From a virus (taxonomy: Duplodnaviria > Heunggongvirae > Uroviricota > Caudoviricetes): a stretch of DNA of 40,364 bases. The notes beneath the pieces were generated by a model. It searched no databases and was not told where the DNA came from. It worked only from the letters and a program-made list of their open reading frames with translations. The position numbers and the translations under genes were made by a program. The stretch spans positions 1-40,364 of the IMG/VR virus record IMGVR_UViG_2563366860_000007. The stretch is one strand, 5' to 3'. Below, piece by piece: positions 3,067 through 25,333 of this stretch. Each line of letters opens with the position of its first letter. The stretch's first letter is position 1.

Positions 3067-3666
3067 TCAGAACTTATAACCGACACCCACGATGAAACTG
3101 TTGGTACGCCAGTCACCGCTGCCGGAGCCTTCATAAGCGACATCAATGGCCACGGATTCGGTCGGGTTAAACTGCACGCCAGCTCCCCACGCCAGAGACG
3201 TGTTGCTGTGGCGACCGTCATCACTTCCGGTCAGCACATCGTGCTTTTTCCCCTTGTTGTCAGTTACGCGGAGATAATCCCCGGAGAAAGTCGACACACG
3301 GCTGTAAGCCACACCCGCCATCGCATACGCGCTGAACCATTCATTCACGCGTACAGACGGCCCCGCCATCACGCTGAACCAGCGGTTACGCACGGAATCT
3401 TCATGCCAGCGGGTATCGCTGTAGTGCGTTTTTTGCTCATCCTCAGCATTGGCATAACTGAAGGACGTAATCAGCCCCAGCGCGTCCGTAAACTCATAAC
3501 GGTATTTCACGTTAATCCCGTTCAGATTATCGCTGCCGGGAGCGTTCGTACGGGCATGAAGATACCCCGCGCTCAGTGTGGACTGATGTTCAGACGCCCA
3601 TGCAGGCGCACCGGATACGGACAGACAGATGGCTGCGGACAAAATGGCTGCACATAATTTACGCAT
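3067..3666 (-). CDS. lom: Outer membrane protein Lom (Ail/Lom family)
   Basis: Signal peptide MRKLCAAILSAAICLSVSGAPAWA and C-terminal VGVGYKF beta-barrel ending; sits between J and stf as in lambda. Confidence 0.85.
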   Translation of the reverse strand: MRKLCAAILSAAICLSVSGAPAWASEHQSTLSAGYLHARTNAPGSDNLNGINVKYRYEFTDALGLITSFSYANAEDEQKTHYSDTRWHEDSVRNRWFSVMAGPSVRVNEWFSAYAMAGVAYSRVSTFSGDYLRVTDNKGKKHDVLTGSDDGRHSNTSLAWGAGVQFNPTESVAIDVAYEGSGSGDWRTNSFIVGVGYKF

Positions 3667-3690
3667 AATTACCTCTCGCTTTTCTGCAAT

Positions 3691-3714: not shown

Positions 3715-3733
3715 CGTATATGGGTTATAAAAT

Positions 3734-6700
3734 TCAGCTAATCGTGATGCCTGCAGTGGCTTTCTTCATCACAACAACCAGCAAATCGCTGATACTTGCT
3801 GTGGGATACCAGCCATTTACCCACCATGCTGATACAGAAAACTCCAGCGTCATGTCGCCGCGACCAGCAGGCATATTAATAACACCACTGTAAACCAGCG
3901 TATTATCCAGCGCGGTACGGTTATAAATTTCAGCACCGTTTTTCTTCACTATCAGGCGGCATGACGAATAAGTATCGCTGTTCTCCTGCTCATGTCTGGC
4001 ACCGCTGAAAGCCACCGCCGGAATAACAATCTGCCGGTTAAACGGCTGATCGTCATAAACCCTGACGGTAATGGTTCCTGATGGCCAACGCTTCGGTGCA
4101 CGGGAGTCACGAGGGAAAGCCTTACCCACTGTTTTAACGAGATCGCCTTCAATCTGGTTTGCAGACAGTTTCCCTCTGATGACACAGTTCTCGTTAATGG
4201 TGACATTATTGAGCGTGCCGGTATTCGCCGTGATGGCTCCACTGATATCCGCATTGCGGGCTGTCAGCCTGCCATCCGGCGTCAGGGAAAACGTCGGAGG
4301 ATTGCCGGATGACGTGATGCTCACCGCAAACAGTCGCTTCAGGAACACGTCGTTCATGAACAGCTGATTCCCCTGCGCCACAAATAACGGCGTGGTGTTA
4401 CCGTTCTCCGGAGTAATCATCGCAATGCGATCGGCCTGCAGCAGAATGTTACTCAGCGTCTGACCATCGACATCCTCGATCCCCGCGCCAATCCCGGCCA
4501 CATAGGGAATACCGTTTTTTGTTTTCTGCACCTTCAGCATATACATGGCATTCAGCTCATTGCGCGTGTCTGACTGAACCCGCTGGATTTGCTGTATGGT
4601 CACGGCCTGGTCACCCAGCTTTTTATCCGTGGTCGAGGCAATTTCACTCCCTTTTTCATCCACGTACTGACGGACCTGTGCTATCTGCCGGGCGTTTTCT
4701 GACTGGCCCTGGCTGACTGTCTGCTTGATTTCACTTTGCTTTTTGTCCACGTACTGGCGGACCTGTGCTATCTGTCGGGTATTTTCCTCACTGCTCTGAC
4801 TGACCGTCTGTGAGATTTCACTGCTGACACGGTCCACTTTCTGACTCACCTGCGCGATGGCCAGCGTCTGATCCTCATTCTTTTTCGCAACCAGCTGCGT
4901 GAGGCTGTTTTCCGCCTCCCCGATTTTCCGGGTCACTTCCGCAATATCCGTGTCCATCCGCTGGCGGATGTCTTCTTCCAGTTGTCCGATATTCTCTTCC
5001 AGTTGAGTGACATCCGATCGCAGGGCTGACGCATCAATGCGCTTTTTCAGTGCCTGCCCCAGCAGCGTCTCATCTATCAGACCACGGAAAAATTCCAGAT
5101 ACCCTTTTGCATCATTGCTGGCCTGCCCGCTGGCTTCCACAAATGCAGACTTGCCCACCAGGTTGACACTGCGCACATAAAACCAGAAATCCATCCCCGG
5201 CTTAATCCGATCGCCCTGGACAGTCCACTGACTGCCGGTCCCCAGATAACGGGCAGATTTTTCCACCTGTGCCGTGTTCGTGATGCGTTTTTCTGAGAAC
5301 CAGAATTCAAACTGTACCGTCGGGTCATACACCGCAAGACGCGGGACCGCCGTTATCTGAAAATACCCCGGCGTCAGCTCAATCCGCGATGGCGCTGCCG
5401 GTGCGGCAATCCGGAACGATACCGACGCCGGATCGCCCTGCTGTCCCCACGCATTTACCGCCCGGACTGTCAGCCTGTAGTTCCCCAGAGCCAGTTGTGT
5501 GAAGCGGTATGTGGTTTCCGTCGTCCTGGCCGTGCTGACCAGCCGCTCACTGCCATCGTCCGCTGCCACGGTCAGGCGAAGCAGGAAGCTCACGCCCTTC
5601 ACCACCTTCGGCGTGTCCCAGCGCGCCAGCACCTGATATTCCCCGCTGTCTGCAGTGACTTCGGCGGTCAGATGCTGCACTGCTGGCGGCGTGACACCAT
5701 TCACCGTGCCGCTCTGGTCACCGTCAAAGTGCGCCCCGTTATCCACGATGGCTTCTTTTTCCGGTACATGCTGCACGGCGGTGATGGCATACGTGCCGTC
5801 ATCGTTCTCACGGATACTCACGCAGCGGAACAGGCGCTGGCGCAGCGTCGGCAGCTTCAGCCCCCACACGCTGTATCCGGCAACGCCGTCAGGAACACGG
5901 CTCACTTTTACCTTCACGCCGTCGGTGACGGACTGGACCTCCACGCTGACCGGATTACCACTTCCGTCAACCAGGCTTATCAGCGTGGTACCGGAGGATG
6001 GCAGCGTGATTTCACGGTCGAGCGTCAGTGTCCGCGTCTGGCTGTTCACCGCCAGCACGCGCCCGCCGGTGCTGATACCCGCATAGTCATCATCACAGAT
6101 TTCAATAACATCGCCCGGTACATGGCGAAGCCCTTCTGCGCCCACGCTGAAGTCCACGGTCTGCGTTTCCAGCAGCTCCGTTTTAATCAGCCACAGCCCG
6201 GCGCGGTGTGCCTGCCCCCGGCTGGTACAGCCAAAGGCATCCATCTTCGTGACATTACGACCGTAACGGGCAATGGCCCGCGTGTCCTCCACAAGCTCTG
6301 TCGCCGTCTCCCAGCCGTTATCCGGATCAATCCAGTTCACCTCAACGGCATTATGACGGTCCTTCAGGGCGCTGAAGCTGTAGCGGAACGGCGCGCCATC
6401 ATCCGGCATCACCACATTACTGCGGTTGTAGGTCCACACCTTATCTGACGGTCGGTCCTGCACGAACGTCAGCGTCTGCCCGTTCCATACCGGCATACAG
6501 CGCATCGCCGAGCAGAAATCACTGAGCACATCCCACGCCTTACGCTGTGTGGTCAGGTACGCATTACAGGTGATGCGCGGCTCCGTACCGCCAAAACCGT
6601 CCGGCACCGACTGGTCGCAATACTGGCCGATGACATACAGCGCCCATTTATCCACATCCGCCGCACCAAGACGTTTCCCCATGCCGTAGCGCGGGTGGGT

Positions 6701-21785: not shown

Positions 21786-22136
21786 TCAGTTGATGCGTTC
21801 ACGCGCTGTTTTTGCTTTATGACAGGGCCAGCACAGACTCTGCAGGTTACTGTCTGCATCCGTGCCACCATGAGCTTTCGGAATGATGTGGTCCACAGTT
21901 CTGGCTTCAACGGCTCTCCCATTGCGCAGGCAGTTCTGACACAGATGATTATCACGCTTCAGTATGCGCGCACGTATGGCATCCCATTTCGAGCCATAGC
22001 CACGCTGGTGGCGGCTCAGTCCGCGTTGATGCTGTACCCATCCTTCGCCACGATGTTTATCGCAGTAACCAGAACTGTCTGTGGTTGTACCTGCACATCC
22101 ACGCTTACGGCAGGCGCGTGGGATTCGTGGGGGCAT
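21786..22136 (-). CDS. HNH endonuclease (packaging-associated)
   Basis: 116 aa with Cys pairs and a His-containing HNH core (DHIIPKAHGG...CWPCH); adjacent to the terminase as in HK97-like cos phages. Confidence 0.85.
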   Translation of the reverse strand: MPPRIPRACRKRGCAGTTTDSSGYCDKHRGEGWVQHQRGLSRHQRGYGSKWDAIRARILKRDNHLCQNCLRNGRAVEARTVDHIIPKAHGGTDADSNLQSLCWPCHKAKTARERIN

Positions 22137-22178
22137 AAATACCTCATACCCTGCGAAATGTTTACCACGATAAAAAGG

Positions 22179-22646
22179 CTACTTAATGCACTGAGTGCGG
22201 ATATACTCCTGTGCCCCTTCCAGTTGCATCTGCATCGTCATCAGCCGCTCTCTGAGGGTGAAATAATCCCGTTCAGCGGTGTCTGCCAGTCGGGGGCTGG
22301 TTGCATTATCCACGCCGGAGGTGCCGGTGGCTTCACGCACGGTACCGGGGCAGGTGGCGTTGATCCGCAGGCGCTTACGACCAGCGGCAACGTCAGCGCG
22401 AAGAGTTTCATTTTCAGCTCTCGCATCGGCTAATTCCCTCGAGTATTTTGCATCGAGCGCAGCAACATCACGCTGACGCTGCTGCATGTCAGCGATGGTG
22501 GCGGTCAGCTGCTTCAGCTCACTGACTTTTTTATCACGCTGTTCTTTGTAGGTGATGGCGTTATCACGGTAATGATTAACCGCCCACGACAGGCAGACGA
22601 TGATGCAGATAACCAGAGCATAAATAATCGCGGCGACTCTGCTCAC
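22179..22646 (-). CDS. Rz: Spanin inner-membrane subunit Rz (i-spanin)
   Basis: Close match to recalled lambda Rz (...[29 protein letters not shown]...[15 protein letters not shown]...); probable GTG start at 22644-22646 overlapping the lysozyme stop. Confidence 0.85.
22241..22426 (-). CDS. Rz1: Spanin outer-membrane lipoprotein Rz1 (o-spanin), embedded in Rz in another frame
   Basis: [23 protein letters not shown]... with lipobox LVVSAC and Pro-rich body, similar to lambda Rz1; wholly inside Rz. Confidence 0.8.
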
Positions 22647-23176
22647 TGCTCTATCCCCCAACAGGCTAATGCGCTTTCCTGGTCACGACGAATAACTTGC
22701 CCATAGCAGTTATTTGAACGTATGCGGCAATCGCGCCCACCATCCTTAATCCACCAGCGAATCGCTTCGCATGCCCCCTTACGATCACCGGCATTCAGCC
22801 GCTTATAAAACGTCGACGGGAAACACTTACCGGGGCCAATGTTGTACGGACAGAATGACGCGATCCCCGCTTTCTGGGGTTCGGTCAGCGGCACTCTGAT
22901 GTTTTTCTCCACCCACGCCAGCGCTTTATCACGCTCAATGGCGTTAACCTGGTCGCATTTTTCCTTCGACAACTTCATGCCCGGAACGACAGGTTTGCCA
23001 TCCACCATGATGGCACCACGGCAGATGGTCCAGATACCTGCACCATCACGGTATGCCGTGGTGTGGTTGCCTTCCTTTTCATCCAGAAACTGGTCGAGAA
23101 TGTCAGGCGCAGGCGCACCTGCGGCAATCAGCGCCAGAACGGCAGCCGACAGGCCGTATCTGATTTTTGCGTTCAT
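22643..23176 (-). CDS. Phage lysozyme (T4-type, GH24) with probable SAR signal-anchor-release N-terminus
   Basis: Catalytic E...D...T spacing in [16 protein letters not shown]; weakly hydrophobic Gly/Ala-rich N-terminus [17 protein letters not shown] typical of SAR endolysins. Confidence 0.85.
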
Positions 23177-23226: not shown

Positions 23227-23571
23227 TCAGCCCAGCGGTGGAGTCTTCAGAGAACCAGTAATTCTTCCCGGTAGCTTTCCTTTGTAGGTTATCCACACAT
23301 TCTGCGCCTCTAAAATTACGGGGCGCTTTTCCGGCGACTGCTCACCCCCTTCACATAACCCGGCAGCAACATCCAGGAAGACCTGTCTGATGCTCCTTCT
23401 GGCTGCTTCCTCATAAAACTCCAGCGCGGCACCTTCAACACGGTCCAGCGAGATGTCCAGGTCAAAAATTTCACCGTCAAAGCGTTTTTTGTCCCGTAAC
23501 GCTAAAGTTACCGTAACTTTATTCTCAAAATTGCGGATCCCTTTCACAATCAGTTCATAGTTTTGAGTCAT
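23227..23571 (-). CDS. Hypothetical protein between holin and lysozyme (DUF1327 / YdfR-like by position)
   Basis: 114 aa ORF; position matches the small conserved gene between holin and endolysin in Qin-type lysis cassettes; assignment is positional. Confidence 0.45.
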   Translation of the reverse strand: MTQNYELIVKGIRNFENKVTVTLALRDKKRFDGEIFDLDISLDRVEGAALEFYEEAARRSIRQVFLDVAAGLCEGGEQSPEKRPVILEAQNVWITYKGKLPGRITGSLKTPPLG

Positions 23572-23575
23572 TGAA

Positions 23576-23791
23576 TTACTCTCCCCGTGCAGCCTTACGA
23601 CGGTCCTCTCTGATTTTGAAATACAGGTTAGTCAGATATGTCAGGAAGCCCAGAACCAGACTCCCCAGTACACCAATCGCAGCCCACTGTGACGGACTGA
23701 CCTGATCAAGCCACTGTAAAAACCAGTAGCCAGCACTGCCTGCGGAGGTGCCGTAGGCAATGCCCGTTGAAATTTTATCCATGGATTTCAT
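23576..23791 (-). CDS. Class II holin, phage 21 S-like pinholin with dual-start motif
   Basis: 71 aa from the ATG at 23789-23791: [71 protein letters not shown], matching recalled S21; two Met codons (MKSM) and two TM helices. Confidence 0.85.
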
Positions 23792-23924
23792 AGCCTCACC
23801 TCCGCAGCGAACGGATGGCGTAGTTATAAGGGGAGCGAAAAAGAAAGAATGCGCGATTGCGCAATATGGTAACGTCAGGGTATTATCCACTGGCTGAATA
23901 GATCACTTCACGTTTTTTGTTCCT

Positions 23925-23990
23925 TGCCGCCCGTATCCATATGCGGGCTTTTTTTTGCATGTAAAAAGGCCCCAACACATGTGCGTGGGG
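23925..23990. terminator. Pair of hairpins upstream of the holin (possible bidirectional terminators)
   Basis: GCCCGTAT-CC-ATATGCGGGC followed by T8 (plus-strand terminator) and AAAAA-GGCCCC-N13-GGGGCC (minus-strand terminator). Confidence 0.4.
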
Positions 23991-24192
23991 CCTGAGAGTA
24001 TACATGGTTTCAGTCAACTGCATGGTGCCGGGTGCCTCCCGGTGAATTCAGTACCAGCACCTGAATCCGCGATTATCCCATATACCTACTCGCTGATTGC
24101 CCATCCGCACAGGGGGATTCACCATGCCAGTTTCTTTTAACAAACTCCCCGCAAAACAGACAACTGTCAACCGTCTGAATTGTGAGACATTT

Positions 24193-24218
24193 AAAAAAAA
24201 GGCCCGCAAAAGCGAGCC
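24193..24218 (-). terminator. Rho-independent terminator just downstream of the tRNA cluster
   Basis: Plus strand AAAAAAAA then GGCCCGCAAAAGCGAGCC; on the minus strand a 7-bp stem (with one G-U pair) and UUUU loop followed by U8. Confidence 0.5.
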
Positions 24219-24232
24219 GGGAAAAATAAGTC

Positions 24233-24309
24233 TGGCGCGTTGTACTGGATTCGAACCAGTGACCGATTGCTTAGAAGGCAATTGCTCTGTCCGGTTGAGC
24301 TAACAACGC
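24233..24309 (-). tRNA. tRNA-Arg (anticodon UCU)
   Basis: Hand-folded cloverleaf: acceptor GCGTTGT/ACAACGC perfect, anticodon arm ATTGC-CTTCTAA-GCAAT, T-loop GGTTCGAATCC, encoded CCA; third gene of an Ile-Arg-Arg cluster like ileZ-argN-argO of Stx phages. Confidence 0.8.
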
Positions 24310-24322
24310 AGGGTACAGATAA

Positions 24323-24399
24323 TGGACCGCCTTCGGGGACTCGAACCCCGCGCAACCAGCTTCGAAGGCTGGTGCTCTATCCTGATGAGCTAATGGCGG
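24323..24399 (-). tRNA. tRNA-Arg (anticodon UCG by hand folding)
   Basis: Acceptor CCGCCAT/AAGGCGG with one A-A mismatch at 6:67, anticodon arm CCAGC-CTTCGAA-GCTGG, T-arm CGGGG-TTCGAGT-CCCCG, encoded CCA. Confidence 0.7.
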
Positions 24400-24406
24400 T
24401 ATGTGA

Positions 24407-24482
24407 TGGTGGCCCTTGCTGGATTTGAACCAGCGACCTGGCGATTATGAGTCGCTCGCTCTCACCACTGAGCTAAAGGGCC
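24407..24482 (-). tRNA. tRNA with CAU anticodon, Ile2 (ileX/ileZ-like) backbone
   Basis: Acceptor GGCCCTT/AAGGGCC, anticodon loop CTCATAA, T-loop GGTTCAAATCC; backbone resembles recalled E. coli ileX (lysidine-modified CAU reading AUA) rather than elongator or initiator Met tRNA. Confidence 0.75.
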
Positions 24483-24522
24483 GGGAGCCGCATAATAACG
24501 ACGCGTAATTAATTCTTCAATA

Positions 24523-24801
24523 TCATCCGTTCTGGCTGACTAAATCCTGTACTTCCCGAACCGCCTGCTCAAAACGTTCAGTCTCCAGCTCAACGCCAAT
24601 TGCACGACGCCCGAGCGCCAGTGCCGCTTTCACTGTCGAACCCGACCCCATGAAAAAATCTGCAATCAGGTCACCCGGACGACTGCTAGCGCTGATTATC
24701 TGCTGCAGCATTTCTGCCGGTTTTTCGCACGGATGTTTCCCGGGATAGAACTGCACCGGTTTATGCGTCCAGACATCGGTATACGGCACCTGCGCCGTCA
24801 C
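24523..24801 (-). pseudogene. C-terminal remnant of a beta-class N6/N4 DNA methyltransferase
   Basis: 92-codon ORF with motif I DFFMGSGST and a HPCEKP region typical of the C-terminus of DPPY-first methylases, but no DPPY motif and only a GTG start; an in-frame stop lies about 33 codons upstream. Confidence 0.65.
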
Positions 24802-24859
24802 GCCAAAATACCGCCGCAGTCGGCATTCACAACCACCAGCGCATTTAACGTTCAGCCAT

Positions 24860-24884
24860 AAAAAAACCCGCTCGCGGCGGGTTT
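24860..24884 (-). terminator. tR'-like rho-independent terminator shortly downstream of Q
   Basis: Plus strand AAAAAAA then CCCGCTCGCGGCGGG; perfect GC-rich hairpin followed by U7 on the minus strand, about 70-90 nt downstream of the Q stop. Confidence 0.6.
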
Positions 24885-24886
24885 AA

Positions 24887-24952
24887 GCTGTGTGGCGAAG
24901 TAACCACTCTTAACATACTGACATACTTTTTGCGGACCGCACTAATCATTTT
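24887..24952 (-). promoter_or_regulatory. Predicted late promoter pR' / qut region
   Basis: Short AT-rich interval between the Q stop and the tR' hairpin; assignment by position (Q acts at a promoter just downstream of its own gene); individual promoter elements not resolved. Confidence 0.4.
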
Positions 24953-25333
24953 TTACTTTTTTAGCAGCCAGTCGTCCATCTCCAGTCTTACCCCCAGCAC
25001 AGACAAACATCCGTCAATAAACCCTTCGGCTATCTGCATCTCAATTCGTATTGCTTTTTCGCTTTTCTTTCTCGTCCTGGCTATCTGTCTTTTTGATATT
25101 CGCAACAAATAATGAGCAATGAGAAGCGAATACTCCTCAGGTTTTTTCTGCTTCAGACGAGCAAGACAGTTTTCAATGATAAGTCCGTCATCATCGCAGC
25201 AGGCCGGACGTGGTTTAGTGGCAGATGGTAAAAGTCCTTTGAATCCGGCAGCGATCGGAGAATAGTCCACCCCGGTGTTACCACTTGCAGCCCATGCCCC
25301 CCAGCGTTCAAGAACCATCTGAATATCACGCAT
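24953..25333 (-). CDS. Late antiterminator Q (QuuD-like family)
   Basis: ATG at 25331-25333 (MRDIQMVLERWGAWAA...AAGFKGL...RPACCDDD...) matches recalled DLP12 QuuD; the longer track start at 25348 is GTG. Confidence 0.8.
   Translation of the reverse strand: MRDIQMVLERWGAWAASGNTGVDYSPIAAGFKGLLPSATKPRPACCDDDGLIIENCLARLKQKKPEEYSLLIAHYLLRISKRQIARTRKKSEKAIRIEMQIAEGFIDGCLSVLGVRLEMDDWLLKK

Follow-up and report, generated by a model that had tools for sequence, protein, structure and literature searches.

The closest known systems to the locus analysed here include phages of the Stx2 type. In 933W, Sakai Sp5 and Stx2a_WGPS9, the late region runs from the antiterminator gene Q and pR'/tR' through the tRNA genes ileZ-argN-argO to stx2AB, followed by an STnc100/EcOnc27 small RNA (sRNA) gene with the antisense RNA AsxR, the esterase gene nanS-p, DUF1378, DUF826 and the lysis genes S-R-Rz. 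STnc100 has been reported directly downstream of stx2B (PMC12370729; PMC12711010), and strain EDL933 carries 11 copies, which are transcribed, one of them being confirmed by Northern blotting (PMC5331693). Tree et al. (2014, PMC4104026) described pairs of convergent sRNA genes at the moron site, 3' of pR', in the Sakai prophages Sp3, 4, 5, 9, 10, 11, 15 and 17. The same study found EcOnc27 and EcOnc05 to be discrete Hfq-associated RNAs, with Northern sizes of ~235/247 nt and ~222 nt, respectively, and identified a primary start site at the AsxR 5' end. PasD, an sRNA of EPEC, is Hfq-dependent (PMC8550237) and related to STnc100 (bioRxiv 10.64898/2026.05.13.724894). The arrangement also exists without the toxin: in the stx-negative prophage Sakai Sp4 and in Nil3 and TL-2011a, ileZ-argN-argO is followed by a convergent pair of STnc100/EcOnc05-type and EcOnc08-type RNAs.

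The window considered here, a stretch of 40,364 nucleotides from a virus of the Caudoviricetes (IMG/VR record IMGVR_UViG_2563366860_000007), contains what is very probably a standard cargo ('moron') site in the late operon of a lambda-like E. coli phage, situated downstream of Q and pR', free of cargo, and holding tRNAs and two convergent sRNAs. Each component has been published, as has the overall layout: the tRNA trio, the place of STnc100 behind stx2B, the pairs of convergent sRNAs at the moron site, and prophages of this arrangement that have no stx. The finding is therefore an ordinary one and leaves current understanding unchanged.

Late region and tRNA cluster

The order along the minus strand is Q, the pR'-tR' leader, a methyltransferase remnant, ileZ-argN-argO, the convergent sRNA module, an S21-type holin and the lysis cassette. 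The 985-bp segment from the tRNAs to the holin is 99.7% identical to Escherichia phage PhiR49_2 (PV340570, host ECOR13), and at least 80% of it is present in 97 complete E. coli genomes, the best matches listed being 98.9-99.8% identical. The late half of the window matches PhiR49_2 with 96% identity over 96% of its length; the early half differs, being another, mEp460-like mosaic. The features from Q to the end of the tRNA cluster are as follows.

24953-25333, minus strand, late antiterminator gene Q (Pfam PF06530, E 1.4e-52)
24857-24950, minus strand, probable pR' leader and tR' terminator, with a hairpin at 24884-24864 followed by a T-run (terminator scan; assigned by position only)
24523-24801, minus strand, remnant of a DNA methyltransferase gene, C-terminal third only (Pfam PF01555, profile positions 137-220 of 221)
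24492-24520, minus strand, promoter-like site TTGAAG-17-TATTAT, ~10 nt upstream of ileZ (promoter scan)
24407-24482, minus strand, ileZ, tRNA with anticodon CAU, Ile2 type (ARAGORN; Rfam tRNA model, 72.5 bits)
24323-24399, minus strand, argN, tRNA-Arg (UCG) (ARAGORN; Rfam tRNA model, 54.6 bits)
24233-24309, minus strand, argO, tRNA-Arg (UCU) (ARAGORN; Rfam tRNA model, 70.1 bits)
24193-24218, minus strand, intrinsic terminator of the tRNA cluster, GGCTCGC-TTTT-GCGGGCC followed by T8 (terminator scan)

Q is a different allele from that of phage 933W, with 49% amino acid identity (tblastn). The probable pR'-tR' leader is 83% identical over 58 nt to the segment just 3' of Q in Stx2a_WGPS9 and gives a weak isrK-like Rfam match of 18 bits. 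Its length is ~90 nt, compared with 258 nt for the corresponding leader (StxS) of Stx2 phages, and it may give rise to a short, terminated transcript comparable to StxS or IsrK. Between tR' and the tRNAs lies the N6/N4 methyltransferase remnant, which is also found upstream of the tRNAs in many related contigs; this recurrence marks it as a long-standing scar carried along with the tRNAs.

The only tRNAs that ARAGORN predicts in the window are these three, which share the minus strand and follow one another as CAU, UCG, UCU along late transcription. Together with the Rfam tRNA model, this bears out the initial annotation, which had placed three tRNAs of the kind Ile2-like(CAU)-Arg-Arg between Q and the holin. 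Its further proposal, that these correspond to ileZ-argN-argO of Stx phages, agrees with the comparison to Sakai: ileZ is 100% identical to ileZ2 of the Stx2 prophage Sp5, argN is 92-94% identical to argN2 and argN1 (92% to argN2), and argO 97-99% identical to argO2 and argO1 (97% to argO2). All three genes encode the CCA end. The ileZ sequence has C4-G69 and C5-G68, pairs that would serve as determinants for TilS. Judged from its sequence, the CAU tRNA thus has a body of the Ile2 type (ileX/ileZ), in which C34 would be converted to lysidine and AUA decoded, and not that of a tRNA-Met, and it is annotated as tRNA-Ile in the RefSeq records beneath the best genome matches. The promoter-like site ahead of ileZ falls inside a block that is 90% identical to the Stx2 phage, and dRNA-seq in Stx phages placed a primary start site driving the tRNAs at the equivalent position (PMC7547250). 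The terminator behind argO is likewise kept in the Stx2 phage, where it lies ahead of the stx2 promoter.

As a check, the initial annotation proposed looking for enrichment of the codons AUA, AGA, AGG and CGA in the late genes. Over 47 crudely called open reading frames (ORFs), the counts per 1000 codons are 8.5 for ATA, 7.1 for AGA, 5.2 for AGG and 5.9 for CGA, compared with averages in E. coli of ~4, ~2, ~1 and ~3.5, respectively. All four codons thus exceed these averages overall, but the genes for capsid, portal and terminase have low counts, 7-14 per 1000 for the four combined, the excess being contributed by Q and by accessory or early genes; the codon rationale finds weak backing. A role of the tRNAs as codon support for late structural genes is not borne out.

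Convergent small-RNA genes

The interval separating the last tRNA from the ATG of the holin, 23792-24232, measures 441 bp and is the slot to which the initial annotation was confined, the tRNAs lying just outside it. It had been described as about 440 bp of noncoding, empty DNA with terminator hairpins in both orientations. The length and the hairpins are as stated, with terminator-like hairpins at 24218-24201 on the minus strand and at 23929-23948 on the plus strand (terminator scan) and the STnc100 terminator at 23992-23968 on the minus strand, but the slot is not empty: ~300 of its 441 bp are made up of two convergent sRNA genes, of the STnc100 family and the EcOnc08 type, the terminators of which account for hairpins in both orientations.

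23961-24192, minus strand, STnc100-family sRNA gene of the EcOnc27/EcOnc05 type (Rfam RF02076)
23892-23956, plus strand, predicted ~65-nt antisense sRNA of the EcOnc08 type (fold, conservation and Sp4 homology)
23857-23886, plus strand, antisense sRNA promoter TTGCGC-N18-TATTAT (hexamers conserved and spacer variable in Nil3, TL-2011a, Sp4 and Stx2 phages)

The sense RNA is a member of the STnc100 family, the RF02076 covariance model giving minus-strand positions 24156-23957 a score of 133.1 bits (model positions 1-206, E 3e-30, cut-off 47), compared with 208 bits for the Stx2-phage copy. Using the exact 26-nt STnc100 core, 120 IMG/VR loci were collected, and among their 83 distinct variants conservation starts abruptly at ~24192 and extends to the terminator, a hairpin at 23992-23968 followed by a T-run at 23967-23963. 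The consensus fold of 25 variants comprises a 5' hairpin, an invariant long-range helix P1 (24127-24120 paired with 24027-24020) that encloses three hairpins, and the terminator, with compensatory pair changes in P3 and in the terminator. The window copy is without one variable hairpin; P1, P3, P4 and the terminator are fully paired, and P2 has one C-U mismatch (24112/24103). The whole slot differs from that of PhiR49_2 by one base, located in P2, an otherwise invariant helix of the STnc100 core: a G-to-T change at 24103, which turns the C-G pair 24112/24103 into C-U. The base is present in 1% of the 83 aligned sequences, namely in the window itself, and may reflect either a sequencing error or incipient decay of the STnc100 copy. 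In the core (24127-24020), the last 5-bp hairpin runs straight into the 3' strand of the closing helix, producing a cloverleaf-like shape near the real tRNAs; tRNA models gave no match to the core.

The conserved module is 220 nt long in Sp4 and 235 nt in Sp5, lengths that fit the Northern sizes of EcOnc05 and EcOnc27, so the sense RNA probably spans the whole conserved block, ~24190-23961, with a probable length of about 220-230 nt as estimated from these homologues. The promoter scan returned no clear sigma-70 promoter for it. The candidates found by hand, TTGTCT-18-TGnTAAAAG at 24163-24134 and TTAAAT at 24194-24189 on the edge of the module, are weak in their -10 elements, and processing of a longer transcript is another possible origin of the RNA.

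The antisense RNA is predicted to end at the hairpin 23929-23948, which is followed by T8, and its fold has a free energy of -22.7 kcal/mol with a z-score of -4.9 relative to shuffled sequence. Among the collected loci, the EcOnc08-type subtype is represented by 42 copies in 14 variants, with the promoter in every copy and compensatory changes in the terminator stems. The window RNA is 78% identical to the copy in Sakai Sp4, with which it shares the invariant motifs CTTCACGT and TTCCTTGCC and the terminator. In comparison with Sp4, Nil3 and TL-2011a, its U-rich tract is shortened and its terminator loop is different. The Sp4 homologue (core 1179943-1179992, promoter 1180011-1180040) lies at the site of EcOnc08, an Hfq-CRAC peak that Tree et al. 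(2014, PMC4104026) list for 1179938-1180010 of the minus strand. Both RNAs of the module are homologous to Hfq-bound RNAs detected experimentally in E. coli O157 Sakai. The coordinates in Table S2 of Tree et al. are offset relative to NC_002695.2 by about +128 nt at Sp5 and apparently not at all at Sp4; the EcOnc08 match presupposes that no offset applies there, and mapping EcOnc RNAs onto NC_002695.2 needs offset correction. Northern blotting for EcOnc08/21 gave about 271 nt (Tree et al. 2014, PMC4104026), a size which suggests that the antisense transcript may have a more distant 5' end, lying in upstream sequence for which the window has other DNA.

The pairing resembles that of AsxR and AgvB (PMC4104026) in its position at the moron site, its convergent orientation, and a short antisense RNA with an intrinsic terminator, which lies just 3' of the STnc100 terminator behind a homologous promoter of the form TTGCGC-N18-TAnnAT. 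In Stx2a_WGPS9 (L003), stxB ends at 4959, the STnc100 match begins at 5034, and the AsxR antisense gene follows right after STnc100. In the Stx2 phage, TTGCGC-N18-TAAAAT lies 5 nt upstream of the 5' end of the published AsxR sequence. The window RNA lacks, however, the ~42 nt of conserved 3' sequence by which AsxR, AgvB and EcOnc03 are defined. AsxR, AgvB and Esr41 were rejected as identities of the plus-strand RNA, for which no meaningful Rfam match was obtained even at E values up to 10. Neither RF02703 nor RF02702 (AsxR/AgvB) matched window positions 23780-24240 or Sakai Sp4 at that threshold, the AsxR of the Stx2 phage scoring 88 bits with RF02703 as a control, and no family in Rfam 15 matches the antisense RNA.

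The two RNAs would be made in the lysogen, like the tRNAs, from promoters of their own and would act in trans via Hfq on host or phage transcripts, and the three minus-strand terminators (tR', argO and STnc100) would keep constitutive transcription out of the holin gene S. After induction, Q-modified RNA polymerase would pass all terminators and proceed to the lysis and structural genes. Alternatively, the STnc100-like element might act mainly in cis on the late transcript or on the DNA, for example by governing processing or stability, by insulating transcription, or by providing a conserved anchor for the recombination that exchanges cargo. The literature establishes no trans target for either RNA of this subtype, and the edges of the module are also the cargo junctions. 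The core helix junction is 95-100% invariant over the 83 variants amid mosaic flanks, an invariance that stems in part from the selection of loci by the 26-nt motif. Yet the RNA has its own intrinsic terminator, its Sakai homologue appears as discrete RNAs of module length on Northern blots and as an Hfq cross-linking peak, and the related PasD has RIL-seq targets (PMC8550237), which together make a mainly cis-acting element improbable. A cis role and that of a trans-acting Hfq sRNA are in any case compatible.

Cargo junctions on both sides of the RNA module

The reading of the locus as a cargo-free moron site draws on two junctions that border the RNA module, one next to the tRNA cluster and one next to the holin leader and lysis cassette.

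24190-24191, no strand, unoccupied junction equivalent to that of stxAB (blastn end points against Stx2a_WGPS9)
23792-23851, minus strand, holin-proximal leader with the Shine-Dalgarno sequence GGAGGTGA (blastn end points and alignments)
23576-23791, minus strand, holin S of the phage-21 type, 71 aa (Pfam PF04971, E 9e-36)
23227-23571, minus strand, DUF1327/YdfR (Pfam PF07041)
22643-23176, minus strand, lysozyme R (Pfam PF00959)
22179-22661, minus strand, Rz (Pfam PF03245)

Similarity to the late region of Stx phages, as anticipated in the initial annotation, falls into two blastn blocks with Stx2a_WGPS9: window positions 24633-24192 are 90% identical to its positions 3226-3668, and 24189-23944 are 70% identical to 5001-5250. 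The 1332 bp between the blocks in the Stx2 phage consist of the stx2 promoter, stxA (3719-4678) and stxB (4690-4959). Homology thus ends at 24192 and resumes at 24189, and the toxin cassette is represented in the window by a junction of 2 bp. The comparison supports taking the element for a toxin-less relative: the junction in the place of stxAB is clean, the suggested search for deletion scars or residual stx sequence by BLAST against the Stx2 phage found none, and a tblastn search of the entire window with StxA and StxB gave no remnant (E of at least 1). Likewise, tblastn of the nanS-p (SASA) esterase, DUF1378 and DUF826 gave no remnant in the window (E of at least 0.5). The idea that stxAB, lying between the tRNAs and S, fill the entire slot has to be revised, as stxAB in Stx2 phages lie upstream of the RNA pair and occupy only part of the interval.

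What the window has in common with Stx2 phages is the tRNA trio and its order, the argO terminator, the STnc100-family RNA followed by an antisense promoter of like design, and the holin family, the holin being 77% identical in amino acids to that of Stx2a_WGPS9. The window differs from them in being without stxAB, the esterase, DUF1378 and DUF826, in an antisense RNA that is neither AsxR nor AgvB, in an STnc100 copy with only ~70% identity, and in the Q allele. Within the stx-less group, Nil3 is 87% identical over window positions 24633-23851, the STnc100 module of Sp4 is 86% identical, and the junction sequence TTTTTTTTAAATGTCTCAC after argO is the same in Sp4 and Nil3, TL-2011a having a variant of the stx-less junction with a 28-nt insertion.

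These comparisons also bear on the possibility that the phage arose recently by deletion from an Stx phage, from which stxAB and the esterase block were lost by precise excision, leaving sites that were formerly filled. Such an origin would accord with the 90% identity of the tRNA block to the Stx2 phage, the complete identity of ileZ, and the presence of this RNA module behind stxB in Stx2 phages. Remnants of stx or of the esterase are absent, however, and the stx cassette of the Stx2 phage has no flanking direct repeats, no direct repeats or scars having been seen around it. The shared TTTTTTTTAAATGTCTCAC junction in Sp4 and Nil3 and the equal minimal spacing in about 29 of 106 IMG/VR loci also speak against it. 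An RNA module with 86% identity to the one in stx-less Sp4 and only ~69-70% to its Stx2-phage counterpart, together with a different Q allele, makes a recent precise loss of stx very doubtful.

On the holin side, Sp4 and TL-2011a run on from the RNA pair into a SASA/nanS-p esterase gene, the Nil3 record being partial and ending before the esterase position, whereas in the window the pair abuts the holin leader from ~23851. Homology to the esterase-bearing relatives stops at ~23851, right by the antisense promoter, and this point therefore marks a second unoccupied cargo junction. From the STnc100 core motif to the start of the holin there are 255 nt.

Both junctions vary among the 120 related viral contigs, in agreement with the view of the slot as a cargo integration point. 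The upstream junction, from the last tRNA to the RNA module, is shorter than 100 nt in 29 of 106 IMG/VR loci, measures 650-850 nt in ~40 of them, where the sampled cargo is a TerB-domain protein or an unassigned ORF of 108 aa, and reaches ~1350-1400 nt in five; stxB lies upstream of the module in three IMG/VR loci. The TerB-domain protein (143 aa, PF05099) is encoded between argO and the STnc100 module in, for example, L056, L019 and L059. At the downstream junction, the holin directly follows the module in one of 53 loci, which is of the same phage type as the window, and the other loci have 0.5-4 kb of genes for lipoproteins with TolA C-terminal domains or for the esterase, DUF1378 and DUF826. 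L037 has two tandem ORFs resembling lipoproteins with a TolA C-terminal domain (PF06519) between its sRNA pair and the holin. The variable gaps on either side indicate that an RNA module of ~340 bp is flanked by two variable junctions, both unoccupied in the window, and the direct abutment of the module on the holin is the only uncommon feature of the locus.

Beyond the lysis cassette, plus-strand ORFs at 21819-22433 and their neighbours, between Rz and the small terminase, run opposite to the late operon and have no Pfam match, and hypothetical proteins are annotated in the opposite orientation between the same two genes in PhiR49_2. This interval may be another moron position.

We suggest, tentatively and as a proposal that may well prove wrong, that the plus-strand RNA represents a third, uncurated subtype of prophage anti-sRNA with a host target of its own, and that the ~340-bp module is a fixed anchor between two independent cargo junctions, both empty here. 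If this were true, the phage would present the moron site of Stx phages as a minimal chassis occurring in nature.

Annotation and meaning of the locus

Genome pipelines either overlook both sRNA genes or place a spurious ORF of 46 aa over the RNA pair. That this ORF (23883-24023, minus strand) encodes a small protein, as its annotation as a hypothetical protein in PhiR49_2 (PV340570) and in RefSeq genomes would imply, is so improbable as to be set aside, given that it has no Pfam match, overlaps the STnc100 terminator and the entire antisense RNA gene, and has a frame that is not conserved, with 4- and 5-nt indels in the alignment with Nil3, TL-2011a and Sp4. Small ORFs in the slot were rejected as genes on the same two grounds of lacking a Pfam family match and a conserved frame.

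The gaps that the locus points to are small: the pipelines' spurious ORF, and an EcOnc08-type RNA without an Rfam model, a minor gap in curation. The main value of the analysis lies in correct annotation, as the gap before the lysis genes in stx-negative lambdoid prophages harbours two sRNA genes and is not spacer. The 2-bp empty stx junction and the second empty junction on the holin side provide a clean reference for the entry of cargo, Shiga toxin or other, in this phage family.
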